A DNA stretch of 64,000 nt from Patescibacteria group bacterium (lineage in GTDB: Bacteria > Patescibacteriota > JABMPQ01 > JAQVVF01), in NCBI GenBank assembly GCA_041662665.1, contig JBAZSC010000004.1:10464-74463 (forward strand), given 5' to 3'. The notes beneath the pieces were generated by a model, which saw nothing but the letters and a program-made list of their open reading frames with translations, was not told where the DNA came from and made no database searches. The first letter of the stretch is position 1, and every line of letters begins with the position of its first letter. Both the position numbers and the translations under genes were made by a program. Shown here in pieces: positions 20,565 to 56,225 of the stretch.

Positions 20565-21023
20565 TTGCTAGTTACTAGTTACTTCAAAATGGAAATTATT
20601 TCTAAATCATCGCAACAAACACAAGATATCGCTCACAAACTTGCTCAACAATTAAATGGTGGCGAAATTTTATGTTTCTCTGGTGAATTAGGTGCCGGAA
20701 AGACCACTTTTATTCAAGGCCTAGCCAAAGGATTAGAAATCAAAGAAAATCTAACTAGCCCAACTTTTGTCATCTTCAAAAAATATCCTGCCAAAAACAA
20801 TCTCGAATTTTATCATTTTGATTTATACAGAATTCATGATCCACAAGAAATTTTAGATTTGGGCTATACCGAAATCATTAATAACAAAAAAAATATATCA
20901 GCAATAGAATGGTCAGAAAAAATTAAGGATCAAATTCCACTCAAAAATGTAATTCATATTAACTTAGAATATCTCGACAAAGATCAAAGAAAAATAATAA
21001 TCAACGAGAATAATGAATTATGA
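20565..21023 (+). CDS. tsaE: tRNA threonylcarbamoyladenosine biosynthesis ATPase TsaE
   Basis: GELGAGKTT P-loop and SPTF motif; about 150 aa. An alternative start at 20589 is possible. Confidence 0.8.
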   Translation: MLVTSYFKMEIISKSSQQTQDIAHKLAQQLNGGEILCFSGELGAGKTTFIQGLAKGLEIKENLTSPTFVIFKKYPAKNNLEFYHFDLYRIHDPQEILDLGYTEIINNKKNISAIEWSEKIKDQIPLKNVIHINLEYLDKDQRKIIINENNEL

Positions 21024-21162
21024 ATCAAGAATTATGATTAGAATTATGAATTACTGAATAACGATTTTTTTAATTTTCATAATTCTCAATTCAATATTCA
21101 AATCATCATTCATAATTCATCATTCATAATTCATAATTCATAATTCATAATTCATAATTCAC
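21010..21162. repeat. Imperfect inverted oligo-repeat (gaattatga / tcataattc words)
   Basis: gaattatgaatcaagaattatgattagaattatgaatt lies opposite (cataattcat)n x about 6. Confidence 0.6.
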
Positions 21163-21862: not shown

Positions 21863-21947
21863 TTCATTAGTACACCATTCGCAAACACTTGTCCACCGAA
21901 GTCCCGCAGGACGCAGGTGGATTCGAAAATTAATTAGAGTGTACAAC

Positions 21948-24078: not shown

Positions 24079-24152
24079 ACTTTTTTATTAATTAGTAGTG
24101 ATATTCCTGCCTGATAACAGTCAGGTATAACAAAATTTGCGTAAATTCACAA

Positions 24153-26000: not shown

Positions 26001-26050
26001 TATTTTATTTTAATTAACTTTTAACTTTAGATTTTAGACTTTTAACTCAC

Positions 26051-27895: not shown

Positions 27896-27951
27896 AATTT
27901 TTTTGTTTTAAATTTTTAAATTTCTGAAACTAAATTTATATAAATTATATA

Positions 27952-29802
27952 TTATTTACCAATTGCATAATATCTTTGCGAAAAATTAAACGGAGATTTC
28001 AAATAAACCGTAAAAGTATTTTTCTTTGTATTGCGTTTAGCTGACAAATTAGTCCACTTTTTTGATTTCAAATTATATGCTTTTAGATATAAATTCTTTT
28101 CTTTCAACCCTTTTACTTTTTTCTTTAATTTTTTAAATTCTTTTTTAGAATATGAAAATACTAATTTTAATTTAACATTCTTACTTAATTTATATTTTGA
28201 AAAATCAGTATTAATTTTCCAATATTTTTTTAACAAATTATGCTTTGCATCCACAAAAAGTTTTGTAAATTTCTTTTTTCTCACAACCAAAAAATATCTT
28301 TTTGTTTTTTTAAAAGCTTTTGGATATTTTTTGAAAGTCAAATTTAATTCTCTAGCATAATATTTTTTATTTTTCTTTTTAATCCTTACTTCATTTTTTT
28401 TCTTCGCTTTTTTTGTAACAAACTTTGGATTACCGACATATTTGACATTAAAAGATACAACAGCAGATTCAGCACTATAGACATCTCTAAATTTAACGTA
28501 AATTGTTTTTATGCCTTTTTTTGAAGGCATTTTAAAAATCGTATTAGCCAAATAACTGCTCCAAATCTTATTAGAAAAATCAGACTTTGTCGAAACAATC
28601 ATTTCAGTAGGACTGCCAGAAACTGAAGATGCAATATTAATTTTTCTATAAGCTGAATAATCCCTTCCATTATTTATTGTTATTGTTTGAACTGAAGGTC
28701 CAGGAGTATAAGTATAATTCAAACTAGTATTAACTAAACCAGCACTAGTTTTAAAATAAATAACATGTGTTCGATTCATTGAATCTATTCCTAACGATAT
28801 TGGACGATAATATGCATTAAAAGTTTCAAAAGAAAACAAAAGACTGTACGATCCAGTATCCTGTTGATTATAAATTGACCATTGTCCAGAAACATTTGTC
28901 GCGTATTTTAATCTGCCATTTAAAATATCATGATAAGCAACATGCAATTTATTATTATCATCAATTTTTAATGAAGGATAATAGCCCACTTGACCTGCAC
29001 TGTCATTATCAATAACACTTGCAACCCATGCTCCTGAAATATTAGTAATATATTTTAAATCAGAGTTAGTATAATCCAAATAAGCAATATGAATTTTATT
29101 ATTTGAATCAATCGCTATGGAAGACTGAAGACCTACCGATCCATTAGAATCTAAAACTACAGATAGCCAAGAACCACTATCATTAGTAATATATTTTAAA
29201 TCGGAATTAGTAGTATCACGATAAGAAATATGCACCTTATTATTTGAATCCAATGCCAAAGAAGAACTACCTCCAACATCAGTACTAGAATCTATTGTTT
29301 CATTTGCCCATGAACCAGACACGTTTGTCGCATATTTCAAATTGCTATTATCTGAATCATAATAGCTTACATATATTTTTTTATTTCCATCCAAAGCCAT
29401 TGATACTTGTCCCAAGCCAATAGTTCCACTATTATCAATTATCTCGAAAACCCATGTTCCATTAACATTATTCGCATATTTTAACCAATCATTCGTTCTA
29501 TCTTCATAAACAATATATACTTTTCCATTAACATCTATTCCCAAAGAAGAATTACCAACATTAACAGAGTTATCAACAATTTCTGCCATCCAAGTACCAG
29601 AAGAATTAGTCGCATATTTCAAATCAGAATTAGTATTATCAAAATAACTAATATGAACTTTGTTATTTTGATCAATTGCTAATGCATTAACACTTCCAGC
29701 AGATGCCTCCAATTCCTGCGACTGCCAATCAGCAGCCAAAACATTTTGGCCAAACAGAAACAGACCAACAATGGCCAGACAAATTAATAAATACCTCCGC
29801 AT
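27952..29802 (-). CDS. Secreted repeat protein, paralog 4 of 6
   Basis: Same architecture; the 7 repeats are counted explicitly; ends RYYAIGK. Confidence 0.8.
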   Translation of the reverse strand: MRRYLLICLAIVGLFLFGQNVLAADWQSQELEASAGSVNALAIDQNNKVHISYFDNTNSDLKYATNSSGTWMAEIVDNSVNVGNSSLGIDVNGKVYIVYEDRTNDWLKYANNVNGTWVFEIIDNSGTIGLGQVSMALDGNKKIYVSYYDSDNSNLKYATNVSGSWANETIDSSTDVGGSSSLALDSNNKVHISYRDTTNSDLKYITNDSGSWLSVVLDSNGSVGLQSSIAIDSNNKIHIAYLDYTNSDLKYITNISGAWVASVIDNDSAGQVGYYPSLKIDDNNKLHVAYHDILNGRLKYATNVSGQWSIYNQQDTGSYSLLFSFETFNAYYRPISLGIDSMNRTHVIYFKTSAGLVNTSLNYTYTPGPSVQTITINNGRDYSAYRKINIASSVSGSPTEMIVSTKSDFSNKIWSSYLANTIFKMPSKKGIKTIYVKFRDVYSAESAVVSFNVKYVGNPKFVTKKAKKKNEVRIKKKNKKYYARELNLTFKKYPKAFKKTKRYFLVVRKKKFTKLFVDAKHNLLKKYWKINTDFSKYKLSKNVKLKLVFSYSKKEFKKLKKKVKGLKEKNLYLKAYNLKSKKWTNLSAKRNTKKNTFTVYLKSPFNFSQRYYAIGK

Positions 29803-29874
29803 AATTTTTTTGTTTTTATTCCACCAAAGTTCCGCAGAACGTAGGTGGATTAATTTTTAAAAACTTAAAATAAA

Positions 29875-31686
29875 CTATTTTATTCCAATCCCAAAAGTCC
29901 TTTTGCTAAAAGAAATTGGAGAATCAATTATTAAAGTAAAAGTTCTCTTTTTTAAATTTAAAGTTGCAAATGAATTTTTCCACTTTTTCTTTAATTTATT
30001 GTAATATAATAATTTCAAATCACTTTGTTTTAATGTCTTATTATTCTTTTTTAATTTTTTGAATTCTTTTTTAGAATAATTAAAAGTCACTTTTAATCTG
30101 AAATTATTCTTGGCTTTTTTATAAGTATATTTATTTAAATCATCTGTCACTAGCCAATATTTTTTTAATAGCTTATTTTTGTCTATTTTCTTAAAATAGT
30201 TACTGAATAATTTTGATTGAACAAAATATTTTTCTTTTTTTAAATTTTTTGGATATTTTGTCATTACAAAATTCAAATCTCTCGCAGAATAAACCTTGCC
30301 TTGCTTTTTCAACAAAACTTCATTAACTTTTCTAGCCTTTTTTGTTACAAATTTTGGATTTTTAATGTATCTAATTGTCTTTGTTAAAGCACCTGATTCA
30401 GCAAACCATTGATCTCTGAAATTGACATAAACTGTTTTTGTTCCATCAACTTTTGATAAAGTAAAAATCTTTGATGTATCATAAGCTTCCCAATTTGCAT
30501 TTGCAAAATCAGCATTTTCAGAAATTATCATTTCAGTTGGACTGCCTGCTGAAGATAAAGACAATGCTACTGTTCTTAAGGCAGTATATGCTTTATTAGA
30601 ATTAATCTTTAAACTTGTATTTGTTGGTCCCATAGAAGCAGCGTATTTTAAATCGCCATTTGTATGATCCTGATAAGCAATATGAATTCTATTTAGATCA
30701 TCAACCTTAATTGAAGTTTGAAAACCTAAAATTAAAGTATCGCTTCCTTGATCAACAATATATTTCTGAAAGGTTCCTGAAATATTTGTCGCATATTTCA
30801 AAGAATAATTTGGATAACCATCATGATAACTAATATGAGCATAATTATTTTTATCCAAGCTCAAACTAGAAAACATTCCAGTCAATCCTCCTGCTAAAAC
30901 TGCAGTATCAATTGTTGTTTTCTGCCAACTTCCAGATAAATTTGTAATATATTTCAAAGCTTGCACTCCGCCATCATAATAGCTAACATGCACTTTATTA
31001 TTTGTATCAACAGCAATTGAAGAATATTGTCCAACTCCTCCATTATCAATTGCTGAGCTTAAAAAAGATCCTGATTCATTTGTTGCGTATTTTAACCATT
31101 GATTACTGCTATCATAATAGCTAATATGAGCTTTGCCATTTGAATCAACTGCAATTGATGTATTGCTTGTAGAAGATAATGTTTCTACATCGTAGAAAAA
31201 CCAAGTTCCAGATGACTTGATTGCATATCTAACTTTTGATCCATTATAATAGCTAATATTCAATCGATCACTTGAATCAATCGCCATATCCACAAAAGTC
31301 CCGCCCAAAGCATCTAAAACAGAATTTCCCCAATTTCCTCCAGCATTTGTGGCATATTTCAAATCATCATTTACAGCATCATAATAAGCAATATGAATTT
31401 TGTTCGCTGAATCAACCACTAAAGAAGGATAAAGCCCAACCATTACTGAACTCTCGTCAATTATCGTAATTTGAAAACTGCCAGAACTATTAGTCGCATA
31501 TTTTAATTTACCATCACCAAGATATGCAATATGAACATATCCTAACGAATCAACACTAATTGATGTTCCATCTCCAGCAAAACCAGTTGCATCAACTGTT
31601 GTTTTTTGCCAATCTGCTGCCAACACAGTATGACCAAACAACATCAGGCAAAACATTGCCACCAAAATTAATAATTTCTTTTTCAT
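29875..31686 (-). CDS. Secreted repeat protein, paralog 5 of 6 (more divergent)
   Basis: Signal peptide, LKYATN repeats, beta module and a lysine-rich tail ending FGIGIK. Confidence 0.75.
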   Translation of the reverse strand: MKKKLLILVAMFCLMLFGHTVLAADWQKTTVDATGFAGDGTSISVDSLGYVHIAYLGDGKLKYATNSSGSFQITIIDESSVMVGLYPSLVVDSANKIHIAYYDAVNDDLKYATNAGGNWGNSVLDALGGTFVDMAIDSSDRLNISYYNGSKVRYAIKSSGTWFFYDVETLSSTSNTSIAVDSNGKAHISYYDSSNQWLKYATNESGSFLSSAIDNGGVGQYSSIAVDTNNKVHVSYYDGGVQALKYITNLSGSWQKTTIDTAVLAGGLTGMFSSLSLDKNNYAHISYHDGYPNYSLKYATNISGTFQKYIVDQGSDTLILGFQTSIKVDDLNRIHIAYQDHTNGDLKYAASMGPTNTSLKINSNKAYTALRTVALSLSSAGSPTEMIISENADFANANWEAYDTSKIFTLSKVDGTKTVYVNFRDQWFAESGALTKTIRYIKNPKFVTKKARKVNEVLLKKQGKVYSARDLNFVMTKYPKNLKKEKYFVQSKLFSNYFKKIDKNKLLKKYWLVTDDLNKYTYKKAKNNFRLKVTFNYSKKEFKKLKKNNKTLKQSDLKLLYYNKLKKKWKNSFATLNLKKRTFTLIIDSPISFSKRTFGIGIK

Positions 31687-31763
31687 GATTTTCCCTCGTC
31701 CGCCATGCTTCTTCGCTTAAGCGAAGAGCGAAGGCGGATATTAAATAGTAATTATTTTAAAAT

Positions 31764-33614
31764 TTATTTTTTTCCTATTGCATAATAAATTTCATTCCAA
31801 GATATCGGCGAAATCAAAGTGATAGCAAATGTCCTATTTTTCACAGAATGTACGGCATTTAAATTATGCCATTTCTTTTCTTTAACATTATAATATTTTA
31901 AAACCAAACTACTTTCTGACAAACCTTTATTTCTATTTTTTAAAGTCTTGAATTGCTTTTTTGTATATTTAAAAACAAATTTAGTTTTAAAATTATCAGC
32001 TAATTTATATTTATTAAAATTACCTTTTATTTTCCAATATTCTTTAATCAAATTTTTCTTGGCTGCAATATAAGTTTTTGAATATTTTCTATATCTTTTT
32101 ACTTGCCAAGAATATTTTGCTTTTTTCAAACCTTTTGGCAATTTCAAAAATTTTAAATAAAATTTTTGAGCAGTATATTTTTTATTTTTCTTTTTTATTA
32201 AAATTTCTTTGCTTTTTGCATTTTTTGTTACAAAAGTTGGATTTGGCAAATATTTAATTGAATCAGAAACAGTTGCTGATTCCGCATACCATTGATCTCG
32301 AAATTTTACATAAATAGTCTTTTTGCCAACCCTAGAAGACATTTCAAAAACTTTATTCACATTATATGTTTCCCATTCTGCTCCAGCAAAAGTAGAATAT
32401 TCAGACAACATCATTTCTGTTGGATTGCTAGTTGCAGATAAAACCAAATCAACATCTTTAAAATTTGTATATTTTTTACCTGCTTCTATTACAACTTCTG
32501 GACTTATTGGACCAAGTACATCAGCAAATTTTACTTCACCATCCCAAGGAGAATAAGTATGCAGATAAAATAGACCAACGTAAAGTCTGTTTGAAGAATC
32601 CATAGCCAAAGAAATTGGCTGTTCAGCTGTATGAATTGCATCTCCAATATCACTAACAGCTACAGTTGAAAAACTTGTCCCAACATTATTTGCCAGCTTA
32701 AAATCAAAGTTATCCACATCATAATATCCAATTCTTACTCTTGAATTGCTATCAACTACTAGAGAAGAATATATTCCAACATCTCCAGCAGTATCAACTG
32801 TCGAATTTGACCAATAGCCCAACATATTATTTGCGTATTTCAAATCTCGATTCCCGCGATCATAATAACTAATATGAACGAAATCACTATCGTCAATTTT
32901 TATTGAACTAAACTCACCAACATTACCGCTATCAACGGTTTGAGCCACAAAATTTCCAGAAGAATTTGTAATATATTTTAAAGATAGATTTGCCGAATCA
33001 TAATAACTGATATGGACTTTATTGTAATCATCAACAGTTAATGAAGAAAATAGTCCGACAAAAGTACTACTGCTATCTATTGTTGATAATGTAAAACCAG
33101 TTCCATTAGAATTTGTTGCGTATTTTAAATCGTCATTTGTTAAATCATAATAACTAATATGCACATAACCTAATGAATCAACACCAATCGAATCATACAT
33201 ACCAACTTCGCCTGTTGTATCAATTGATGATGCTGCCCACACTCCAGAAGCATTAGTCGCATATTTCAAATCAGAATTAGCATAATCATAATAACTAACA
33301 TGCGCCTTATCATTATAATCTATTGCAATTGATGGATACTGTCCCAAACCAGAACCAAGATCAATTGTTTCACTCACAAAACTGCCAGATGCGTTTGTTG
33401 CATATTTTAGATAATAAGTTGCACCAGTTGTCTCTAAATAAACCAGATGCGCTTTGCTATTTGAATCCAAAGCAATTGCCACAATAGGACCAACACCTAC
33501 TCCTCTCGACAATGACTCAAATTGCCAATCCGATGCCTTTGCTTGACCAAAAAAACAAAAGACACAAGACAACGTTGCAAAAACCACTCCTAAAATTAGA
33601 GATTTTTTTCTCAT
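31764..33614 (-). CDS. Secreted repeat protein, paralog 6 of 6 (more divergent)
   Basis: Signal peptide, LKYATN repeats and a lysine-rich tail ending YYAIGKK. Confidence 0.75.
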   Translation of the reverse strand: MRKKSLILGVVFATLSCVFCFFGQAKASDWQFESLSRGVGVGPIVAIALDSNSKAHLVYLETTGATYYLKYATNASGSFVSETIDLGSGLGQYPSIAIDYNDKAHVSYYDYANSDLKYATNASGVWAASSIDTTGEVGMYDSIGVDSLGYVHISYYDLTNDDLKYATNSNGTGFTLSTIDSSSTFVGLFSSLTVDDYNKVHISYYDSANLSLKYITNSSGNFVAQTVDSGNVGEFSSIKIDDSDFVHISYYDRGNRDLKYANNMLGYWSNSTVDTAGDVGIYSSLVVDSNSRVRIGYYDVDNFDFKLANNVGTSFSTVAVSDIGDAIHTAEQPISLAMDSSNRLYVGLFYLHTYSPWDGEVKFADVLGPISPEVVIEAGKKYTNFKDVDLVLSATSNPTEMMLSEYSTFAGAEWETYNVNKVFEMSSRVGKKTIYVKFRDQWYAESATVSDSIKYLPNPTFVTKNAKSKEILIKKKNKKYTAQKFYLKFLKLPKGLKKAKYSWQVKRYRKYSKTYIAAKKNLIKEYWKIKGNFNKYKLADNFKTKFVFKYTKKQFKTLKNRNKGLSESSLVLKYYNVKEKKWHNLNAVHSVKNRTFAITLISPISWNEIYYAIGKK

Positions 33615-37073: not shown

Positions 37074-37189
37074 ACAAGAATACAAATCTACAAATAACGC
37101 TAATCTACGAATATACGAATCGTCGTATTCGCATATTCGCTATATTGGCATTATTCGTATATTCGTATTTTACCCAACAAAAAACTGTA

Positions 37190-37330
37190 GGCTAATGTCC
37201 CGTGCTACCTTATGTGAACGCATATTTCACAGAAAATAGCGCGGGACGAAGTAACAATCCCAAGTGATTCAGTAGTAAAACACCGCCGAATCCTTTCTGA
37301 TTGTTCCTTATAAAATAGCTGCCTACAGAT
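37190..37330 (+). ncRNA. Candidate structured ncRNA (GC-rich nested-stem element in an AT-rich 436-nt intergenic region); strand uncertain
   Basis: Outer stem ctgtaggc (37194-37201) pairs with gcctacag (37319-37326). Inner stems include gtcccgtgc/gcgcgggac and tgtgaa/ttcaca. No match to the tRNA, tmRNA, SRP or RNase P signatures that I can recall. Confidence 0.25.
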
Positions 37331-37465
37331 TTTTGGCCACGAAAAACATTACTTTTTTTTCATGACTAAACAGCTTAGCATATTATATTTCGCCTGTCAA
37401 TACTTTTTGCTATAATATAATACGAATATGCAAATCTATGCAAATAATACGAATATACAAATTCG

Positions 37466-37505
37466 TATATTCGCAACATTTGCATAAATTCGTATATTTG
37501 TATTA
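37466..37505 (+). promoter_or_regulatory. Conserved about 40-nt promoter-like block upstream of ruvB
   Basis: gtatattcgcaacatttgcataaattcgtatatttgtatta ends 5 nt before the ATG at 37511. Confidence 0.5.
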
Positions 37506-37510
37506 CATAA

Positions 37511-38533
37511 ATGATAAAAAACACAACACCAAAAATCATCGCACCAGAAGAAAAATTAGAAGACAAAGCTCTTGATTTTACCTTAAGACCAAAAAAATTA
37601 GATGAATTTATTGGCCAAAACAAGCTAAAAGAAAACCTCAAGATCTTAATTCAAGCTGCAAACATGAGAAAAGAACAAATTGATCATTTGTTACTTTATG
37701 GCCCTCCTGGTACTGGAAAAACAACACTTGCCAACATTATTTCTTGTGAAACAAACGTCAATATCAGAGTCACTTCAGGACCAGCCTTAGAAAAAGCCGG
37801 AGATCTAGCTGCCATTTTAACAAACCTAAAAGATAATGATATTTTGTTTATTGATGAAATACACAGAATGAACAAAAACATTGAAGAAGTCCTTTATCCT
37901 GCCATGGAAGACTATTCTTTAGACATCGTTCTAGGCAAAGGTCCTTCTGCCAAAACAGTCAGATTAGATTTGCCAAAATTTACTCTTATCGGCGCAACTA
38001 CCAGAATTGGTTTATTATCATCACCTCTTCGCGATCGTTTTGGTGCAATTTATCATTTAGATTTTTATGAAGATCACGAATTAGAAAAAATTGTCACTAG
38101 ATCAGCCAATATTCTAAATATAAAAATTGAAGCTTCGGGTTCATCAGAAATCGCTAAAAGATCTAGAAAAACTCCTCGAATTGCCAACAGATTATTAAAA
38201 CGAGTTCGCGATTTTTCTCAAGTAAAATCAGATGGTACAATTACTCAAGCAACTGCTAAAAAAGCTTTAGATTTATTAGAGATTGATAGCTTAGGATTAG
38301 ATGCCGTTGACCGCAAAATTTTAATGACTATTATCCAAAAATTTAATGGCGGACCAGTAGGTATTAAAACAATTTCTCAATCAACTGCCGAAGAACAAGA
38401 TACATTAGAAGAAGTTGTTGAACCATTTTTATTGCAACTCGGTTTTATCAATCGTACAGCCAAAGGCCGAGAAACAACCAGTCTTGCTTATCAACATTTA
38501 GGCATTACTAACATCAAAGAATGGAAAAAATAG
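37511..38533 (+). CDS. ruvB: Holliday junction branch-migration helicase RuvB
   Basis: [11 protein letters not shown] Walker A, DEIHRMN Walker B and the RuvB C-terminal winged helix. Confidence 0.95.
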
Positions 38534-39395: not shown

Positions 39396-39518
39396 TTTGG
39401 CAGAAGAATCTTGAATCTAGAATTTGGAATCTAGAATGAATAATGAATTTAGAATACAGAATTCTCGATTCTAAATTCCAAATTCTATTCCAGATTCTAG
39501 ATTCCAGATTCTATATTC
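39396..39518. repeat. Inverted oligo-repeat element (gaatctagaat words)
   Basis: ttgaatctagaatttggaatctagaatg is paired with cagattctagattccagattctat. Confidence 0.6.
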
Positions 39519-39526
39519 TAATTTTT

Positions 39527-40570
39527 ATGTCCACAAAACTTTCAGACTACGACTACAATCTTCCACAAAAACTAATTGCCCAAACACCAGCTTCTCCAAG
39601 AGACAAAGCACGTCTTTTAGTTTTGAATCGAAAAAATGACAAGATTTTTCATCACAAATTTTTCGAAATTGACAAATTTTTGAAAAAGGGCGATGTCATA
39701 GTTTTAAATAATACCAAAGTCATTCCAGCCAGATTATATGGCAAAAAAGAAACCGGCGGTAAGGTCGAAATTTTATTATTAAATCCTGTAGCGACAGGGC
39801 ACTGCCCTGTCGCGGTCTGGTCGTGTCTCACCAAGCCAGGCTTAAAACCAAATACTAAAATAATTTTTAATAACAAAATTTCTGCCAAAATAATTTCTCG
39901 TGAAAATGAAAAAGCAACTATAGAATTTGATTTAAACAAAAAACAATTTAACCAATTTTTAAAAAAATCTGGCAATGTCCCATTACCTCCATACATCTCA
40001 CCAAAACAAAAAAACAATAAAACAAAAAAACAATACCAAACCGTTTTCGCAAAATTTGATGGTTCTGTCGCCGCTCCAACTGCTGGTCTTCATTTCACGA
40101 ACAGATTAATCAAAAAATTAAAAAATAAAGGTATTAAATTTGAATATATAACTTTACATGTCGGTTTAGGCACTTTTCAGCCAGTCAAAGAAAATGATAT
40201 TACTAAACACAAAATCCATTCAGAATACGCTGAAATTTCTGCACAAACCGCTAAAAACTTGAACAATGCAAAGAAAAAAGGCCATCGCATTATCGCTTGT
40301 GGAACAACAGTAGTTCGAACACTCGAAGCCGCAGCAATTAACAATTTAGCAATTAAACAATTTAGCAATAATACATCAATTTTTATCACGCCAGGCTATA
40401 AATTCAAATTCGTTGACGCGATGATCACGAATTTCCATTTACCAAAATCAACACTATTAATGTTAATTTCTGCTTTTTCTAATTTAAAACAAATTAAAAA
40501 AACTTATAAAGTCGCCATAAAAAACAAATACAAATTTTATTCTTTCGGTGACGCAATGTTAATATTGTAA
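39527..40570 (+). CDS. queA: S-adenosylmethionine:tRNA ribosyltransferase-isomerase QueA
   Basis: MSTKLSDYDYNLPQKLIAQTP N-terminus typical of QueA. The start is assigned to the ATG at 39527. Carries an in-frame GC-rich palindrome at 39786-39833. Confidence 0.85.
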   Translation: MSTKLSDYDYNLPQKLIAQTPASPRDKARLLVLNRKNDKIFHHKFFEIDKFLKKGDVIVLNNTKVIPARLYGKKETGGKVEILLLNPVATGHCPVAVWSCLTKPGLKPNTKIIFNNKISAKIISRENEKATIEFDLNKKQFNQFLKKSGNVPLPPYISPKQKNNKTKKQYQTVFAKFDGSVAAPTAGLHFTNRLIKKLKNKGIKFEYITLHVGLGTFQPVKENDITKHKIHSEYAEISAQTAKNLNNAKKKGHRIIACGTTVVRTLEAAAINNLAIKQFSNNTSIFITPGYKFKFVDAMITNFHLPKSTLLMLISAFSNLKQIKKTYKVAIKNKYKFYSFGDAMLIL

Positions 40571-40582: not shown

Positions 40583-40618
40583 ACTAATTTTCCGACGCTC
40601 TGACGTTCTGACGCTCTG
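40583..40618. repeat. 8-nt tandem microsatellite, about 4 units of CTCCGACG/GACGCTCT
   Basis: tccgacgctctgacgttctgacgctctg. Confidence 0.7.
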
Positions 40619-40620
40619 AT

Positions 40621-40648
40621 TTTCCGAAATAAAAAAGAGCCCATTAGG
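40621..40648 (-). terminator. Terminator of island gene A
   Basis: The minus-strand RNA forms agaguccuaaugggcucu followed by U6. The identical sequence recurs at 41431-41458. Confidence 0.65.
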
Positions 40649-40666
40649 ACTCTATAAAAAAGAGCT

Positions 40667-41203
40667 TCAGTTCATCTTCATCCTGTAAGCTTCACAAACC
40701 TTGAAAGTCAGACTTCCCCGAAAATCATAATAGTTGGTAGCACGCTTGCCATTTCCATTCACTGGCAAGTTTTCATAATCGTAAAAAGTTGAATCGTCAA
40801 TGTGACTCAACGAAATCTTTCGAGCCATTTTGCGATTCACATTGATTGCAGTCATCATTCGACCCTTGTATCGCTTCGGCCGATGTCCACCGATCAACCG
40901 CTCAGCGCGACGATTGTCTTCACCAACCTTCACGCCAACAGTCAACAGATGACGCCGCCTCAAGTTCGAATAAGGAGTGCCATTCCCACGTTCACCATGA
41001 TGTTTTCCAGTCCCGGCAACAGGCTTGCCCCGAACCGGATCTCTCATCCATTCCATCACATTCTTCTTCTCTTCACGCTTCCTTTCCACTTGCTTTCGCA
41101 CTTCTTCGTCATACGACATCCTGTTCTCAATTTCTCTTCTCTGATAGTCTCTGTCAGCAGTATTCTTGTTTGCAACACAAGCAGTATCTCGATGAATGCC
41201 CAT
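40667..41203 (-). CDS. Island protein A, hypothetical (AGTGKHHG-motif family)
   Basis: Start reassigned to the ATG at 41203, preceded by ggagggaaagag (SD). The ORF-track N-terminal extension (TTG start at 41311) contains the sigma70 promoter. The product is charged and R/K/E-rich. Confidence 0.6.
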   Translation of the reverse strand: MGIHRDTACVANKNTADRDYQRREIENRMSYDEEVRKQVERKREEKKNVMEWMRDPVRGKPVAGTGKHHGERGNGTPYSNLRRRHLLTVGVKVGEDNRRAERLIGGHRPKRYKGRMMTAINVNRKMARKISLSHIDDSTFYDYENLPVNGNGKRATNYYDFRGSLTFKVCEAYRMKMN

Positions 41204-41273
41204 CTCTTTCCCTCCACGCGCCTGTTTTTCCAGGCTGTTCGTCCCTCCACGACACCAGAAAACAGAATAAAAC

Positions 41274-41301
41274 ATTATATCACAACCATATAATTTGTCA
41301 A
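41274..41301 (-). promoter_or_regulatory. Canonical sigma70-type promoter of island gene A (TTGACA-N16/17-TATAAT)
   Basis: The minus strand reads ttgacaaattatatggttgtgatataat. Confidence 0.65.
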
Positions 41302-41378
41302 GATTTTTCAATATTTAAGCTTATTTAAAACAAAAAAACTACAAACATTTCCGAAAATCTGACAATCAGAAGCTCAGA

Positions 41379-41428
41379 AGTCTGACGCTCCGACGCTCCA
41401 ACGCTCCGACGTTCCCACGTTCCCAAAT
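41379..41428. repeat. 8-nt tandem microsatellite (CTCCGACG)n, about 6 units
   Basis: gtctgacgctccgacgctccaacgctccgacgttcccacgttccc. Confidence 0.7.
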
Positions 41429-41430
41429 AA

Positions 41431-41458
41431 AAAAGAGCCCATTAGGACTCTACAAAAA
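41431..41458 (-). terminator. Terminator of island gene B (identical to that at 40621-40648)
   Basis: aaataaaaaagagcccattaggactct. Confidence 0.65.
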
Positions 41459-41477
41459 GGTACAAATTACAAATAGT

Positions 41478-42248
41478 TCAATCGAATACAACTGGTACGA
41501 ACCCACCCTGATTGTGCCAAGGCATATGCTCTCCCATCGCAAATCCGAAAGGATCTTCAAACCGACGATCTTCCAGATCCTCAATCTTTGGAACCTTCCA
41601 ATTCGAACTCCGATCTGTAACAACTCGATTCAGCTTAGGATCGAACATTCTGAATTGAAGCCCATCTTGACTGAAAAGATCCGCATTGAAATGGATTCCT
41701 CCATTCCTATCTTCTGCATCTTCATCTTCATCATGTTCATCAAACTGCTCAAAACTCTTCCCATCAGAAGAATTGTCATCATCTTCACAATCGTCTTCAT
41801 CCTTATCATTCACATCATCAGCACAAATGTAAGCAACAGCCGGTTCAGGCACATCGTTGATAGTCTTTTTCTTTGAAATGGCCACAAGTTCCTCAATCGT
41901 AACCTGATGCTCTTCCCTGAATTGCCGATCGATCTCAGCTTCCCATTCCTGAATGGTCGAATCATCAGCTTCACTCAAAGTCATCTTCCTCAAAACCAGA
42001 TCACGATGTTCACTTTCCATATCATGCACACCCTTCGGCTGTTTCGTTCCAATCAACCTTGTTCCACACTTCAAACGAATTGTACAAGTTGATTCACCTT
42101 GTCCAGAATCACCATGATGCTTTCCAGTTCCAGCAATTGGAAAACCCCTTTCCGGAGCAATGTAAGTTCGCTTCTCCCCTTTCTCTGCAAGTTCGTTCAG
42201 CCTCATCGTATGATAAACACGCTTCTGATCCTTGGACAACCGAGCCAT
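41478..42248 (-). CDS. Island protein B, hypothetical paralog of A (AGTGKHHG motif) with a long poly-acidic tract
   Basis: Start reassigned to the ATG at 42248, preceded by gcggagggaaagagaa (SD). Shares RGFPIAGTGKHHGDSGQG and RLIG with protein A. Contains the acidic stretch DDVNDKDEDDCEDDDNSSD...DEHDEDEDAED. Confidence 0.6.
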   Translation of the reverse strand: MARLSKDQKRVYHTMRLNELAEKGEKRTYIAPERGFPIAGTGKHHGDSGQGESTCTIRLKCGTRLIGTKQPKGVHDMESEHRDLVLRKMTLSEADDSTIQEWEAEIDRQFREEHQVTIEELVAISKKKTINDVPEPAVAYICADDVNDKDEDDCEDDDNSSDGKSFEQFDEHDEDEDAEDRNGGIHFNADLFSQDGLQFRMFDPKLNRVVTDRSSNWKVPKIEDLEDRRFEDPFGFAMGEHMPWHNQGGFVPVVFD

Positions 42249-42372
42249 TTCTCTTTCCCTCCGCGCCACCAAAACTTCTTGTTTGGTGGTCGTTTTCCCG
42301 CTTTTTTCTCTTGCGGGTCCCATCGATCTCGTACCCAAAATAACATAGAACTAACCAGAAATATAGCATTTT

Positions 42373-42401
42373 ATTCTATCATTAAAAAATAAAAATGTCA
42401 A
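42373..42401 (-). promoter_or_regulatory. Sigma70-type promoter of island gene B (TTGACA-N17-TAGAAT)
   Basis: The minus strand reads ttgacatttttattttttaatgatagaat. Confidence 0.6.
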
Positions 42402-42467
42402 TAGAAATCAAAAATACCAACTTTTTGGCTTTAAAAAGACAAGAAAAATATCATAAATTTGAGTGGT

Positions 42468-42546
42468 GGCGTTCTGACGATCCAAAGCTCCCACGCTCCG
42501 ACGCTCCGAAAGTCCCACGCTCCGACGCTCCCACGTCCCACGTTCC
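42468..42546. repeat. 8-nt tandem microsatellite, about 9 units (CTCCGACG/CTCCCACG)
   Basis: gttctgacgatccaaagctcccacgctccgacgctccgaaagtcccacgctccgacgctcccacgtcccacgttccc. Confidence 0.7.
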
Positions 42547-42548
42547 CA

Positions 42549-42580
42549 AATAAAAAAATGGCATCAAAGCCATTAAATAA
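42549..42580 (-). terminator. Terminator of island gene C
   Basis: The minus strand forms aatggctttgatgccatt followed by T7. Confidence 0.6.
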
Positions 42581-42587
42581 AGAACAA

Positions 42588-42941
42588 CTACAACTTTTTT
42601 GCTTCTACTCTTCTTTCAATTTCTCGCCTTACAGCCGACAACACACCTTGAGGCATCAGCTTCGAATCAAAATTCGTCCAACGAAAAATTTCAAAACCTA
42701 CTTTGATTTCACCCAAAGCAATCACTTCTCTCGCAATTTCCAACCTTTTCTGCAAATAATCCAAATCTTCCTTTCTGCACCATCCTCTCCTTTCAAATCC
42801 AAATTCATCAAAACCCCAGTCTGCCAAAACATCATCTGGATGATCAAAAAAATCTGTTTTGTGATCACCCTCGAAAGGATAAAAAACAGTACCACGCCTA
42901 ACAAAAATATCATTCAATGCATACTTCCGACCCTTATCCAT
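42588..42941 (-). CDS. Island protein C, hypothetical 117 aa
   Basis: Strong SD aaaggagagg 5 nt from the ATG; a 7-bp GC hairpin in the leader. No recognisable domain. Confidence 0.55.
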   Translation of the reverse strand: MDKGRKYALNDIFVRRGTVFYPFEGDHKTDFFDHPDDVLADWGFDEFGFERRGWCRKEDLDYLQKRLEIAREVIALGEIKVGFEIFRWTNFDSKLMPQGVLSAVRREIERRVEAKKL

Positions 42942-42994
42942 TTCCTCTCCTTTGCCTGTCTCCCCCTTTTGACAGGCTTTTTTTGCACCTTAAA

Positions 42995-43022
42995 AGTATA
43001 TCAAAATTTTTCATAAAGTCAA
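42995..43022 (-). promoter_or_regulatory. Sigma70-type promoter of island gene C (TTGACT-N16-TATACT)
   Basis: The minus strand reads ttgactttatgaaaaattttgatatact. Confidence 0.55.
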
Positions 43023-44101: not shown

Positions 44102-45469
44102 TCAATTTTCTTTTTCCGTTTTCAATTTTGTAATAATCATCAAAGCAATAATCAACCAAAATAAAATTGACAAATCATTTTTAAAATACGGCACATCAAC
44201 AATACCATGCATAATTATACAAACCATCGCACCCATCAAAGCAATTTCCAATTTCCAATTTCCAATTTCCAATTCTCCCATCCCAGTTTGTAATTTGTTG
44301 TTTGTAATTTGTTTGTTTTTTTGTTCTTTTGTTTTTTTGTTTTTTTCAAAACCTTGCCAAAAGAATAAAACTAAAATCCAAACAAAAGAAATTAATCCGA
44401 GCACCCCCGTCTCCACCCAAAAATTCAAAATAATATTATGCGGATAAACTAAAATTTCAGTATGCTTATTTAATTTATAATTTGGATAAGCTTTTTGAAA
44501 TCCAGCTAAACCAGCTCCAAAAATTGGATTTGCTTTTATTAAATTCCATGTTCCTTCCCAAAGAACAAGTCTCACATCGCCTGAAGTTTCTTGAAAAGTA
44601 ATAATTGGCACCACTTTTTTTGAAGTTACTGGAACTATCAAAATAGAAATTATCGAAACAATCGCCAGTCCAACCACCCACCATCTGAATTTCGTAAACA
44701 TCAGCATAAAAAACAATCCGATCAAAATTCCAAAAATCGCACCCTTAGACACAGCCAAGACAACTGCTATTACTCCTGCTAAAACAACCAAACAATAAAA
44801 CAATAAAACAAAAATCGACACAATTTGTTTTCTTGTTTTATTGTTTTCTTGTTTCATGCCGACAATCAACCCACTAAACAATACAACTATTGGTGCGACA
44901 TATAAACCGATCGCATTTGGATAATCAAACACGCTCGTTGCTCGTTTTAAATTTGGCAAATTATAATCTACTGGAATATTAATATTAAAAATGTATTGAA
45001 TAATCGCATAAACAGAAATAACTAATGATGACAAACCTAATGCCCACAAAATTAAATTTAATTGCTTTTTAGATCTTAAGACATCAAGCAAAATTAAAAA
45101 AACTAAAATTGGTTCTACAAAATATGCTCTAAATCTTCCCAAAGCATGTTTAAAATCAGCCGAAACAAAAACTGAAATTATCGCAGCCAGCAAAAATAAC
45201 AAAATTGGCAACCACCATTTTTTCAACAGTTCTCGCCAATTCGCAACAGTCTGCTTTATCTCTTTATTTAAAATCTTCTTAACAACAAAAATTAGAGTTA
45301 AAACTAATACCATCAATTCCAAAAATGTTGACGGCAATGGCCCAAGATTAAATCTCAACAAATACAATGGCATGGCAAAGACAACTAGACTTAATCCAAT
45401 ATCAACTCTTCGCCAACAAATAATGGCGTAAATAATCAATAGTGAAAATACAATAATTATGTTTAACAT
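44102..45469 (-). CDS. O-antigen ligase / Wzy-like polytopic membrane protein with an in-frame repeat insert
   Basis: 10-12 TM helices in Wzy_C-like topology. The repeat at 44243-44310 is translated in frame as KQITNNKLQTGMGELEIGNWKLEI. Confidence 0.55.
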   Translation of the reverse strand: MLNIIIVFSLLIIYAIICWRRVDIGLSLVVFAMPLYLLRFNLGPLPSTFLELMVLVLTLIFVVKKILNKEIKQTVANWRELLKKWWLPILLFLLAAIISVFVSADFKHALGRFRAYFVEPILVFLILLDVLRSKKQLNLILWALGLSSLVISVYAIIQYIFNINIPVDYNLPNLKRATSVFDYPNAIGLYVAPIVVLFSGLIVGMKQENNKTRKQIVSIFVLLFYCLVVLAGVIAVVLAVSKGAIFGILIGLFFMLMFTKFRWWVVGLAIVSIISILIVPVTSKKVVPIITFQETSGDVRLVLWEGTWNLIKANPIFGAGLAGFQKAYPNYKLNKHTEILVYPHNIILNFWVETGVLGLISFVWILVLFFWQGFEKNKKTKEQKNKQITNNKLQTGMGELEIGNWKLEIALMGAMVCIIMHGIVDVPYFKNDLSILFWLIIALMIITKLKTEKEN

Positions 45470-45518: not shown

Positions 45519-45626
45519 CCTAAACAAATTCAAAACTCAAATTTCAAATTCCAAAACATTGACGACGAGTTTTGAAAATTTTGATTTTGAGCATTTAGAT
45601 TTGTTTAGAATTTAGGATTTAGGATT
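45519..45626. repeat. Long inverted repeat (caaattcaaaa / tttggaattt-type words)
   Basis: Left arm cctaaacaaattcaaaactcaaatttcaaattccaaaac pairs with right arm gagttttgaaaattttgattttgagcatttagatttgtttagaatttaggatttagg. Confidence 0.65.
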
Positions 45627-45634
45627 TTCTAAAA

Positions 45635-48146: not shown

Positions 48147-48258
48147 AAATCTCAAATTACAAACAAATCTCAAATCACAAAGATACAAACTTTAAATCCT
48201 ATTTTGTAATTTGTCTTTTGTAATTTGTTTGGAATTTGGAATTTGGAATTTTCGTAAC
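48147..48258. repeat. Long inverted repeat, caaattccaaa family, overlapping the 3' end of the 48192-49766 gene
   Basis: Left arm ctcaaattacaaacaaatctcaaatcacaaag; right arm gtaatttgtcttttgtaatttgtttggaatttggaatttggaatt. Confidence 0.7.
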
Positions 48259-50378: not shown

Positions 50379-51467
50379 CTAATCTATTATTTTTAACTCG
50401 TTATAAACTTCTAATGTTTCTTCAGCACATTTTTTCCAAGAAAATTTATCAGCTTGCTTTAATCCATCTGCTTTCATCATGATCTGTTTTTCAGGACTTT
50501 TCAAAACTTCTATAATATTTTTCACCCATACTTCTTTATTTTTTGGATCAATTAAAATTCCTGCATCACCGACAACTTCTGGCAACGATGAAGAATTTGA
50601 AGAAATAACTGGCACTCCACATTTCATTGCTTCTAATATCGGCAAACCAAAACCTTCATAAATTGACGGAAATGCAAACAGTTTCGCACCATTATATAAA
50701 TACGGCAAATCACCTTCTTCAACATAATCCGTAAAAATAACTTTATCTTGAAGATTTAGTTCTTTAATCAGTAAAAATATATTTTCATACCTCCACCCTT
50801 TTTTACCCGCAATAACAAGCTTCAAATCTCCAATATCCGAATATCTTAATTTCCGAATATCATTAAATACGTTTACCAAAAATTCTAAATTTTTTCTTGG
50901 CTCAAGTGTCCCAACATTCAAAATATAATTTCCACTAATTCCATATTTTTTCTTAACCTCTTCAATTCTATTCAAATCAGTTATCACTCTAAATTCTGAG
51001 CCCGCTGCCTCATAAATCACTTTTATTTTATTTTCATCTAATCCAAGTTTTTCCACTAAATCTTTTTTCGCACTTTCTGAAATTGTAATAATATAATCTG
51101 CAAACTTATACGACCAAGGCATTAATTTTGTAAAATAAAACCTTGAACTCATTGAAAAATTTTCTGGATAAAGAATTGGAATAATATCATGAATTGTCAC
51201 CACTTTTTTAAAATTTCCAAATTTCGGCACAGAAAAACAAGTTTTGTGAACAACATCTGGTTTTATTAATTTTACTTTTTTTACAAATTTTACCTGATCC
51301 CACCAAATTCTTTCATAAGTTCTCAAATCTTTATTTTTTCCTGAATCAATTAAAAAATACTCATTTTGAGTATCAATTTTTTTTAGATTTTCAACTAAAT
51401 TTTTAACATAAAAACCAAACCCGCTCTTCTTTCCCAACATTGTCTGTGTATCGATGACTATCCTCAT
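50379..51467 (-). CDS. GT4-family (GT-B, glycosyl transferase group 1) glycosyltransferase
   Basis: C-terminal EGFGLPILEAMKCGVPVISSNSSSLPEV signature. Confidence 0.85.
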   Translation of the reverse strand: MRIVIDTQTMLGKKSGFGFYVKNLVENLKKIDTQNEYFLIDSGKNKDLRTYERIWWDQVKFVKKVKLIKPDVVHKTCFSVPKFGNFKKVVTIHDIIPILYPENFSMSSRFYFTKLMPWSYKFADYIITISESAKKDLVEKLGLDENKIKVIYEAAGSEFRVITDLNRIEEVKKKYGISGNYILNVGTLEPRKNLEFLVNVFNDIRKLRYSDIGDLKLVIAGKKGWRYENIFLLIKELNLQDKVIFTDYVEEGDLPYLYNGAKLFAFPSIYEGFGLPILEAMKCGVPVISSNSSSLPEVVGDAGILIDPKNKEVWVKNIIEVLKSPEKQIMMKADGLKQADKFSWKKCAEETLEVYNELKIID

Positions 51468-51477
51468 TTATAAGCAC

Positions 51478-51700
51478 TGTCATCCTGAACCGCAGTGAAG
51501 GATCCCGTTGCTAAATAAATAATCACGGGATTCTTCGGCTTCGGCCTCAGAATGACAATATCTAAAAATATATTTTTCTAAAAAAATAAAAACAGATATT
51601 GGCAAAAATTATTTTTTTCTGAAGGCGAGGATTGTCTGAGCCCCGAACCGCAGTGAAGGGGCGAGTTCCGCAGCCTGAAGAAAAAAATAATTTTTGACAA
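51478..51700. other. Two GC-rich structured elements sharing gaaccgcagtgaagg, separated by an AT-rich spacer
   Basis: tgtcatcctgaaccgcagtgaaggatcccgt...acgggattcttcggcttcggcctcagaatgaca and ctgagccccgaaccgcagtgaaggggcgagttccgcagcctgaag. Confidence 0.4.
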
Positions 51701-53180: not shown

Positions 53181-53318
53181 TCGTTTAAAAAACTAAAAAT
53201 ATAAAAATCACTAACTCATATTATCATTTTTTCTATGCAACAGCAAACAAAAAAGAGCAGAATGCTCTTAATTTCTAATTTCCGAATTTTTATATTTTTA
53301 ATTTTTTATATCCGTACG

Positions 53319-53884: not shown

Positions 53885-53962
53885 ACGTGAATTAAGAATC
53901 ATGAATTAAGAATTATGAATTTTATCATAATTCTTGATTCTTTATTCATGATTCTCGTGGCT
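53885..53962. repeat. Inverted oligo-repeat (gaattaagaatcatgaatt / aattcttgattctttattcatgattc)
   Basis: Related to the words at 21010-21162 and 35270-35330. Confidence 0.55.
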
Positions 53963-54446
53963 TAATTACTATTTTTCTATTCGGATCTTCGCCAATACTT
54001 TCTGTACAAACTAGCTCATTATTTGCCAAACACATATGAACAACTCTCCGCTCATAAGCAGTCATTGGTCTTAATACGATTTCTTTGTTAATTCGAACTA
54101 CTTTTTCCGCAGTATCCAAAGCTATCTTTTTTAAATATTCTTCTTTTTCTTGGCGATAATTATTCACATCAATGTAGAATGGAATTTCAGAAACGCTATT
54201 TTTTCTTTTTAAAAATACTTTTGCTAAATGTTGAATTGCAAATAAATTGCAGCCTCGCTGTCCAATCAAATAATTTGCATCATCAGCCTCAATATTCAAA
54301 CAAACAATTTCCTTTCCTTCTTTTTCGTCAATTCGAGCATTTGTCTTTCCATTGATTCCCATTTTCAGAATTAAATCTTCAACTACTCCTTTTACCTCCT
54401 CGATACTTGTTGCATTGATTTCATTCATATGTTTTAAAATAATCAA
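53946..54446 (-). CDS. jag: Jag/KhpB-type R3H RNA-binding protein
   Basis: KH-like domain plus R3H (LIGQRGCNL...; YERRVVH). Located downstream of yidC. Confidence 0.75.
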   Translation of the reverse strand: MIILKHMNEINATSIEEVKGVVEDLILKMGINGKTNARIDEKEGKEIVCLNIEADDANYLIGQRGCNLFAIQHLAKVFLKRKNSVSEIPFYIDVNNYRQEKEEYLKKIALDTAEKVVRINKEIVLRPMTAYERRVVHMCLANNELVCTESIGEDPNRKIVIKPRES

Positions 54447-54585
54447 TAATCAATTACCAATAATCAATAAATAATCAATTTCCAATAACTAAATAATCAA
54501 TAAAATCGTCGCAATTTTGATTATTAAATTATTGGTTATTGGTTTTTTACTGATTATTGAAATTTGATTATTGGTTATTTAAGCC
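54440..54585. repeat. Inverted oligo-repeat (aataatcaat / attgattatt words)
   Basis: aataatcaataatcaattaccaataatcaataaataatcaatttcc... lies opposite ...ttgattattaaattattggttattgg. Confidence 0.6.
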
Positions 54586-55302: not shown

Positions 55303-55416
55303 AAATTACAAATCCCAAAATCCAAACAAATCCCAAATAACAAATTACAAAATATCTTTTGTGGTTTGTAATTTGGAATTTGTAATTTGTTTGGTATTTG
55401 AAATTTGGAATTTCAC
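55303..55416. repeat. Long inverted repeat, caaattccaaa family, overlapping the 3' end of yidD
   Basis: Left arm aaattacaaatcccaaaatccaaacaaatcccaaataacaaattacaaa; right arm tggtttgtaatttggaatttgtaatttgtttggtatttgaaatttggaatttc. Confidence 0.7.
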
Positions 55417-55671
55417 AGGTACGTTATCCACTCCGCCATGACTCCACGGATTACATCTTAACACACGCCAGCCAGCCAACAAAGAGCCTTTAAAAATTCC
55501 ATGTTTTTCAATTGCTTGATATCCATATTCTGAACAAGTCGGATGATATTTGCAAACACCATAAGGAAGATAATTAGATATTAAGCCATGATCAGGAGAA
55601 ATGGTTTTCTGATAAACTTTAATCAAAAGCAATAATGGCAATCTAAATATATACATAAATACAATTATCAA
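55345..55671 (-). CDS. yidD: Membrane protein insertion efficiency factor YidD, with a repeat-encoded C-terminal tail
   Basis: ISPDHGLI...[17 protein letters not shown]...RCNPWSHGG core. The C-terminal 23 aa ([23 protein letters not shown]) lie within the inverted repeat. Confidence 0.75.
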
Positions 55672-55790
55672 TTCACAATTACCAATTTACAATCAATTAA
55701 TCAATGATCAATAATCAATTTTCGACGAAGTTTTGTAAATTGTAAATTAGTAAATTTATTGAAAATTGATAATTGGTAATTGAAAATTAA
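55655..55790. repeat. Inverted oligo-repeat (caattatcaat / attgataattg words)
   Basis: caattatcaattcacaattaccaatttacaatcaattaatcaatgatcaataatcaatt lies opposite aaattgataattggtaattgaaaatt. Confidence 0.55.
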
Positions 55791-56131: not shown

Positions 56132-56225
56132 TATCTTAGTTCTAAAAGTTATAAAGTTATAAAGTTCGTAAAGTCCGTAACTTTATAAACTTTATAACTT
56201 TATGAACAGCACGAACTAACGCAAA

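Follow-up and report, generated by a model that had tools for sequence, protein, structure and literature searches.

Octamer tandem repeats behind three small orphan genes of a Patescibacteria genome and the probable origin of their modular arrangement

Introduction

In a 64-kb stretch of the genome of a Patescibacteria group bacterium (assembly GCA_041662665.1, contig JBAZSC010000004.1, positions 10,464–74,463 of the forward strand; hereafter the window), three small genes, A, B and C, lie in a row on the minus strand next to queA. Each of them is accompanied by a tandem array of an octamer that reads CTCCGACG on the plus strand. How did such a regular block arise? The first-pass annotation of this DNA had proposed that the octamer is a genome-wide element that marks units inserted by a cassette-like mechanism. 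We consider another explanation reasonably probable: dispersed repeats of the slippage type, an old tandem duplication and later gene conversion of short 3' modules would together account for the modular block.

Results

Arrays, terminators and promoters of the island

In gene direction, that is, along the minus strand, each unit runs promoter, 5' untranslated region (UTR), gene, terminator, array. The modular order reported earlier is real, but in gene direction the array follows the terminator and does not precede it. The features are as follows (SD, Shine–Dalgarno sequence; aa, amino acids; nt, nucleotides; L with a number, a matched locus).

40590–40621, no strand assigned: array A, CTCCGACG on the plus strand, CGTCGGAG on the gene strand; it separates the stop codon of queA from terminator A
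40627–40654, minus strand: terminator A, predicted stem-loop AGAGUCC-UAAU-GGGCUCU (40653–40636) with a U-tract
40667–41203, minus strand: gene A, 178 aa, an orphan, paralog of B, motif PVAGTGKHHG, GC content 46%
41204–41301, minus strand: 5' UTR and promoter A, hairpin GCCUG/CAGGC directly before the SD GGAGGG; TTGACA-16-TATAAT with TG
41357–41425, no strand assigned: array B, a core of about 5.5 units (41380–41425) and 3–4 degenerate units (TCCGAAAA, TCTGACAA, TCAGAAGC) on its left
41425–41452, minus strand: terminator B, identical to terminator A at 28/28 nt, predicted stem-loop 41451–41434
41478–42248, minus strand: gene B, 256 aa, an orphan of a very rare family
42249–42401, minus strand: 5' UTR and promoter B, two hairpins whose pairing is kept through changed bases in relatives; TTGACA-17-TAGAAT
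42470–42548, no strand assigned: array C, about 9 units; L003, L249 and L250 have an array of this unit family at the corresponding position
42550–42574, minus strand: terminator C, predicted, AAUGGC-UUUG-AUGCCAUU with a U-tract, stem 42574–42557
42588–42941, minus strand: gene C, 117 aa, an orphan unrelated to A and B; the L249 ortholog is 43% identical
42942–43022, minus strand: 5' UTR and promoter C, hairpin GCCUGUC/GACAGGC before the SD
13106–13173, plus strand: array in valS, period 8, in frame, AAACACTC units grading into CGACGCTC units

The arrays beside the three minus-strand genes had been put at about 4, 6 and 9 units. They are real; our counts are about 4 for array A, about 9 for array C and, degenerate units aside, about 5.5 for array B. 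The four or so degenerate CTCCGACG units of array A (40590–40621) read ttccgacg, ctctgacg, ttctgacg and ctctgatt on the plus strand. Each array starts about 45–70 nt past the stop codon, directly behind the terminator, and the octamers begin within a few bases of the terminator U-tract at all three genes. Tandem Repeats Finder (TRF) detects head-to-tail units of period 8 at 40594–40619, 41384–41423, 42487–42548 and, in valS, 13139–13173. A search with the 16-mer CTCCGACGCTCCGACG, a double unit, with at most two mismatches gave 12 matches in the window and none in any of 100 dinucleotide shuffles. All 12 are on the plus strand and confined to the three island arrays and valS. The island arrays are direct tandem repeats, with no inverted partner and no inverted arms around them. 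Their flanks differ from one another, the terminator module excepted.

Terminators A and B share 28 identical nucleotides (40627–40654 and 41425–41452), so that the identity noted earlier holds and extends one position beyond the 27 counted then. Read from the sequence, their stem is perfect only as minus-strand RNA, through a G–U pair. Units B and C are identical over 22 nt across the junction of array and terminator (41413–41434 and 42536–42557). Terminator C is conserved in L003; in L249 and L250 it persists with compensatory changes.

All three genes combine a near-consensus sigma-70 promoter with a strong SD, immediately preceded by a hairpin, and with a predicted intrinsic terminator on the minus strand. 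The match to the promoter consensus is 12/12 with TG for A (41301–41274), 11/12 for B (42401–42373) and 10/12 for C (43022–42995). The 5' UTR of A is about 95% identical to that of L003; the N-terminal coding sequence differs. The GC content of the stretch 40640–42940 is 41–48% in 400-nt windows, compared to about 31% for the window.

The leader of the B type keeps two hairpins across changed bases, with CCCGC/GCGGG versus CUCGC/GCGAG in one and CCACCAAA/UUUGGUGG versus CCCAcAAGC/GCUUgaUGGG in the other. The second hairpin ends 2–3 nt before the SD. Five sequences were read by eye for this: window 42249–42350 (minus strand), L003 222–325, L127 585–686, L128 5–106 and L129 38–138.

The census of CTCCGACG-family loci covered about 70 kb of the source genome, that is, the 64-kb window and about 6 kb beyond it. 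It gave four loci, three of them in the island, and there was no CTCCGACG array in the 6 kb beyond the window. The arrays do not track SD-bearing genes, as had been suggested: none of the six other window genes with a GGAGG SD has a CTCCGACG array, and the fourth copy is inside valS.

Three candidate roles of the arrays were rejected. A small plus-strand open reading frame (ORF) across array C (42395–42553, 52 aa) was rejected as a gene; it is not conserved in L003, L249 and L250. A role as upstream activator is unlikely because the arrays lie at varying distances from the next promoter. The formation of a G-quadruplex is unlikely because GGG tracts are limited to the window's version of the arrays.

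The in-frame octamer array in valS was confirmed as the period-8 array at 13106–13173. It encodes ...KHSNTETPEHSDDPTLRRSDAL... / ...EHSDDPTLRRSDAL..., a low-complexity loop that immediately precedes the conserved ATSRPE motif, and the ORF of 849 aa is intact. In-frame arrays of period 7–9 were also seen in queA (40003–40035), at a second site in valS (14347–14378), in the Wzy_C-domain gene (44242–44346 and 44780–44854) and at 11280–11302, and such arrays encode low-complexity loops. Since other conserved genes also carry in-frame arrays, the case of valS is not unique.

Synteny and relatives of the block

The closest relatives by queA are L249 (GCA_028699085.1; 79% identity to the window) and L250 (76%). 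In both, the gene order is the same as in the window: VanW, RuvB, bPH_2 and queA, then three convergent minus-strand genes, then a gene resembling gene D of the window and, further on, Wzy_C, PMT_2 and VTT. The three minus-strand genes of L249 and L250 comprise a gene of 141 aa, one B-like and one C-like gene, and both loci carry an extra cyclic nucleotide monophosphate (cNMP)-binding gene. Because the two relatives share the gene order and have genes like B and C in this slot, the block is, as judged from synteny, ancestral, syntenic and fast-evolving, and not an insertion. Of the duplication and insertion of cassettes that had been proposed, the duplication and the modular block stand, with A and B as paralogs (37% identity over 89 aa), and the insertion does not, given the gene order of L249 and L250. 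No integrase, recombinase or transposase was present among the precomputed Pfam families within about 8–10 kb in the window, L249 and L250, in agreement with the earlier remark that no recognisable integrase or transposase is involved.

The flanking proteins of the window and L249 are 73–93% identical, whereas the values are 55% for D, 43% for C and 32% for B. In L129, a B-like gene and the 141-aa gene adjoin queA (86% identical), and in L127 a B-like gene adjoins bPH_2 (84% identical). The slot on the queA side contains gene A in the lineage of the window and L003, and the 141-aa gene in L129, L249, L250, L251 and L252. Three further assemblies (ERZ27249449, SRR18595301 and SRR6484324) match the block and its arrays at 100% identity. 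No difference in unit number was seen among the four assemblies, all of which may come from one strain.

History of the arrays and terminators

Behind the C terminator, the array counts about 9 units in both the window and L250 and about 7 in both L003 and L249; L250 has two units more than the otherwise near-identical L249. As array C occurs in all four lineages examined, with differences in the number of units, we read it as ancestral and inherited, changing by point mutation and by insertion or deletion of whole units. The idea that the array marks inserted units fails here: array C is present in four lineages, and the B-like genes of L127, L128, L129, L249 and L250 have no CTCCGACG-type array behind them. 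The sole CTCCGACG copy of L249 and L250 is the one at the C terminator. Behind those B-like genes there is instead another period-8 tract, of the CTGC type, before another terminator, AGACTTC...GGAGTCT.

The AGACTTC-type terminator recurs in L129, L249 and L250 behind the adjacent, unrelated 141-aa gene, which parallels the duplicated terminator of the window. The recurring module, TTGTTCTTTGTT..AGACTyyGTGTCrTrTTGAyyGGAGTyTTTTTT, is located at 955–1000 and 1548–1600 in L129 and at 6180–6235 and 6790–6840 in L249.

The arrays behind A and B and the AGAGTCC terminator occur only in the lineage of the window and L003. In the window, arrays B and C both start with GGGAACGT GGGA(A)CGT; in L003, both start with ...GAAA(A)T CGGAGCGT. 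Arrays B and C are closer to each other within a genome than to their orthologs. Several stem and loop positions of the B terminator differ between the window and L003, and within the window it is identical to that of A. This likeness within the genome, higher than the likeness between orthologs, points to concerted evolution of the 3' modules, probably by gene conversion.

Repeat load of the genome

It turned out that the octamer had been taken for a special genome-wide element while being one of many period-7/8 repeat families in the intergenic DNA. With a TRF score of at least 40, there are 65 non-overlapping arrays in the window versus 4–10 in ten dinucleotide shuffles, and periods 7, 8 and their multiples dominate. 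Intergenic DNA, 13.7% of the window, holds 36 of the 65 arrays. Its autocorrelation peaks at lag 7 (0.359) and lag 8 (0.353), against a level of about 0.305; genic DNA shows period 3 only. By reading, we recognized at least 10 unit families in intergenic DNA, each at several loci. Many arrays are inverted pairs that form long hairpins. The TCCGA core of the island arrays is also found in AT-rich arrays (477–521, 11280–11302, 50832–50866 and 53270–53318). At the orthologous intergenic sites of L249 there are arrays too, often of other units.

The long hairpins are imperfect, with arms made of degenerate 7–8-nt tandem repeats, mostly with the A/C-rich arm first and the G/T-rich arm second. They are located at 10791–10891, 20345–20448, 21008–21161, 37074–37172, 37404–37519, 39405–39521, 45520–45630, 48147–48251, 53885–53958, 54437–54580, 55303–55413, 55657–55788 and 56138–56207. 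They occupy most of the larger intergenic regions, and one makes up the entire 5' UTR of ruvB. The orthologous hairpin arrays of L249 between bPH_2 and queA and between Wzy_C and PMT_2 use other units. This indicates that position and structure persist while the sequence turns over. Six repeat hairpins have a CGACG/CGTCG centre (3640–3647, 19121, 37121, 45563, 54507 and 55723). This pentamer, which is also the core of the island octamer unit, is intergenic in 12 of its 27 occurrences, with 13.7% of the window being intergenic.

A second family of intergenic hairpins, distinct from the AT-rich repeat hairpins, is G+C-rich, with motifs such as CCACC...CCGCAG...GGTGG. Its sites are 401–440, 21890–21935, 29815–29855, 31690–31740, 51468–51700 and 63171–63290 in the window and 1665–1710 in L127. 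Between the VanW-domain gene and ruvB, a structured non-coding element (37180–37340) has a minimum free energy of −55.7 kcal/mol on the plus strand and −62.3 kcal/mol on the minus strand (z −6.7 and −6.95). Its closing stem, CUGUAGGC/GCCUACAG, is followed by a U-run on the minus strand. The element is near-identical in L249 and, by gene call, in L250, and is a candidate small RNA; in the window it has no ORF of at least 30 aa and no Rfam match. Rfam gave only two tRNAs in the window at the gathering threshold, and in E-value mode only sub-threshold microRNA-like matches to AT-rich hairpins. At 22030–33614 there are six tandem minus-strand paralogs of about 603–682 aa.

The octamer outside the genome

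We scanned 185,579 species genomes with the pattern CGTBRGAR repeated three times; the results that follow hold among the matches listed, at least 120, which do not include the source genome. Long arrays of CGTCAGAG, CGTTGGAG, CGTGGGAA, CGTGAGAG and CGTCGGAG, of up to 22 units, occur in unrelated phyla. The unit CGTCAGAG reaches about 22 copies in a Burkholderia, CGTTGGAG about 21 in a metagenome-assembled genome (MAG) of Chloroflexaceae and 13 in Chryseobacterium balustinum, and CGTGGGAA about 16 in a Phycisphaerales MAG. In several genomes one octamer unit is present at 5 or more loci (matched loci L089, L079, L105, L069, L101, L033, L075 and others). In L056 and L023 the array flips into its reverse complement midway. 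The view of the octamer as a special, widely conserved motif was dropped: in viral contigs the target unit gave 22 hits and the permuted-unit controls 12, 6 and 16. The unit is not special because its excess over permuted controls is at most twofold.

The A/B gene family

Proteins A and B are 37% identical over 89 aa (E 2e-11) and have in common the motif P(V/I)AGTGKHHG. By this comparison A and B are old paralogs. The hypothetical protein WC663_05815, encoded on a 136-kb contig of an NCBI Patescibacteria group bacterium MAG, has the same sequence as protein A. Genes A, B, C and D have no family in Pfam, PHROGs, PADLOC or NCBIfam. Among 5.8 billion proteins, a word-indexed search gave one further member of the A/B family (P0002), and a HMMER profile search of 1.84 billion representatives (50% clustering) gave three more (P0004, P0005 and P0006). 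Thus, the A/B family is extremely rare. A protein-family scan of viral contigs found no relatives. Protein patterns from alignment A5 found none in the metagenomes of the Joint Genome Institute (JGI), and the leader pattern TTGRTGGNNNGGAGGGAAAGRG gave 63 metagenome hits, of which tblastn confirmed 0. The AlphaFold2 model of gene B, from a 6-sequence alignment, is unusable (mean predicted local distance difference test score 49, predicted template modelling score 0.17). The family is a mosaic, with two versions of the middle module and two of the C-terminal module in various combinations.

The B-like genes of relatives, located at the same syntenic position, have a GC content of 59–63% and a GC content at third codon positions (GC3) of 75–81% in surroundings of 32–36% GC. 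These GC-rich genes are at L127 684–1478, L128 104–889, L129 136–894 and L249 6896–7747. The copies of the window have a GC3 of only 37–46%.

Discussion

We suggest the following course of events. The octamer arrays would be short tandem repeats without a dedicated function, which arise and change by slipped-strand mispairing, and the intergenic DNA of the host, saturated with period-7/8 repeats, would be the setting for their growth. An old tandem duplication of a complete transcription unit would have produced A and B, with A taking the slot that the 141-aa gene occupies in relatives. Later copy-correction among the 3' modules may have made terminators A and B identical and given arrays B and C their shared, lineage-specific units.

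Several observations weigh against this explanation. The unit family behind the C terminator persists although the queA proteins are only 76–80% identical, which could mean selection. Unlike array C, the orthologous arrays between bPH_2 and queA and upstream of VanW changed their unit sequence entirely. On the gene strand, only a few bases separate a terminator U-tract from the start of every island array examined, seven in all (three from the window, two from L003 and one from each of L249 and L250); such regular placement exceeds what pure slippage predicts. Independent slippage does not account for the same unit in valS. Gene conversion was deduced from patterns of identity and not observed, and the census covers only about 70 kb of the source genome.

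The same regularity could be explained if the arrays were functional cis-elements under selection: an array that binds a protein as DNA or RNA, an insulator or roadblock that backs the terminator, or a regulatory region of the next promoter. We consider this unlikely. Array C has kept its position and unit family in four lineages, while orthologous intergenic arrays elsewhere exchanged theirs, every one of the seven island arrays abuts a U-tract on the gene strand, the intergenic stretch between C and B is 81% identical in nucleotides compared to 64–69% for the flanking coding sequences, and the TCCGA core recurs in AT-rich arrays elsewhere in the window. However, the identity of repeats is inflated, since any register aligns, and reaches 77% even for the non-homologous arrays between bPH_2 and queA. 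The distance from the array to the next −35 element varies (about 60 and 75 nt in the window, about 65 and about 17 nt in L003), and array A, which faces the convergent queA, lacks a downstream promoter. At five other loci, B-like genes have no such array behind them, unit number and sequence drift freely, and period 8 does not fit the helical repeat of DNA.

A further possibility, which we regard as quite doubtful, is that the slot downstream of queA is an integrase-free exchange locus for a hypervariable mosaic family of orphans, with GC3 of up to 81% in a genome of about 31–33% GC. Exchange would proceed via the conserved frame of promoter, structured 5' UTR, terminator and array, and the arrays would then be kept as recombination or regulatory elements rather than as neutral products of slippage. 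In a weaker form of the cassette idea proposed earlier, which seems to us slightly more doubtful still, the arrays and the conserved 5' UTRs and terminators would be homology arms, and ordinary homologous recombination at a fixed slot, a hotspot without integrase, would duplicate, replace and shuffle units or alleles. The content of the queA-side slot does differ (A or the 141-aa gene), the A/B family is mosaic in its middle and C-terminal modules, the non-coding flanks are better conserved than the coding sequences, and the arrays and terminators bear signs of exchange within the genome. The GC3 of 75–81% of B-like genes in neighbourhoods of about 32% GC would fit the import of alleles. Yet no recombination breakpoint can be placed inside an array. 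The lineages with the 141-aa gene have one array only, so arrays are not needed for that arrangement, and the 37% identity of A and B makes the duplication old and not an active process. Four assemblies have an identical block, and the sample is 6–8 loci, mostly on contigs of 1–2 kb.

It is very improbable that the array is a genome-wide marker of units recently inserted by an unknown cassette mechanism: the GC content of the block (38–46% in a 31% GC genome), the location of 3 of the 4 arrays found in about 70 kb within it and the lack of a recognisable recombinase within about 8–10 kb would suit this view, but the block is syntenic and ancestral, which largely refutes it, array C is older than the divergence of the four lineages, every unit has its own promoter and terminator, the repeats are direct and form no inverted-repeat recombination site, the fourth array lies inside the housekeeping gene valS, six other strong-SD genes are without arrays, and no viral or plasmid-like relatives were found.

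If slippage, duplication and gene conversion are the true explanation, the mechanism is an ordinary one, and there is no new class of mobile elements. Uncultured Patescibacteria can carry a very dense load of 7–8-nt repeats, including long hairpins built of repeats and in-frame repeats in essential genes; we found no description of such a load in Patescibacteria in the literature searched. The analysis also draws attention to a tiny, extremely rare and fast-evolving gene family with a conserved structured leader, a gene-specific GC excess and a fixed chromosomal position. The repeats and compositional outliers described here could be test cases for persistence in minimal genomes that are possibly short of some repair functions.

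Comparison with known systems

The island resembles an integron cassette array in that small genes of one orientation stand in a row, each followed by a repeated non-coding element, and the content of one slot varies. In contrast to integrons, there is no IntI with attI and Pc within about 8–10 kb, according to the Pfam families of the window, L249 and L250. The repeated element is a direct tandem repeat and not an imperfect inverted repeat such as attC, and the only hairpins are short terminators with a U-tract. Integron cassettes are generally promoterless and read from a common promoter, whereas each island gene has its own promoter (10–12 of 12 consensus positions), SD and terminator. The island row is also syntenic and vertically inherited. 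Miniature inverted-repeat transposable elements and repetitive extragenic palindromes differ from the island arrays, which have no inverted arms and no flanks conserved beyond the terminator module.

With the contingency loci of Haemophilus and Neisseria, which are tracts of tetra- to heptanucleotides, the arrays share short tandem repeats that gain and lose whole units. However, the island arrays are located behind terminators, at least 17–75 nt upstream of the next −35 element, and not in the 5' end of an ORF or in the spacer between −35 and −10; the array in valS, with its period of 8 nt, is an in-frame part of an essential gene.

The arrangement of A and B is like tandem duplication followed by gene conversion, as the two units stand side by side in the same orientation, with diverged proteins (37%) and identical 3' flanks. 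It differs from typical gene conversion in that the homogenised tract is non-coding and very short (22–28 nt plus repeat units), and homogenisation did not reach the promoters and 5' UTRs of the two genes.

The classical case of dispersed short repeats is reportedly that of the cyanobacterial short tandemly repeated repetitive (STRR) heptamers, of Mazel et al. in 1990. The island arrays share with STRR and with the heptamers of Xanthomonas and Nostoc the head-to-tail units of 7–8 nt, with one family at several dispersed loci, mostly intergenic and near ORF ends. They also share the retention of arrays between the same genes in relatives, with varying length and sequence, and the absence of a tie to mobile elements or surface-antigen genes. 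The heptamers GGGAATC of Xanthomonas and GGGGAYT of Nostoc are dispersed intergenic repeats (Rehm et al. 2015, PMC4692102). Most of them are found no more than 50 bp from the end of an ORF. The same genes keep them in between, and close relatives show "extensive length and sequence variation"; there is no link to mobile elements or to phase-variable or surface-antigen genes, and polymerase slippage was proposed for them (PMC4692102). The case described here differs in that the units are very degenerate, with many families per genome against one to three, that inverted pairs are frequent and form long hairpins, and that the host has a reduced Patescibacteria genome of about 31% GC. The island family itself is GC-rich and stands immediately 3' of intrinsic terminators, and its G-quadruplex potential is not conserved. 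With these differences, the island arrays fit the kind of dispersed hepta- and octanucleotide short tandem repeats.

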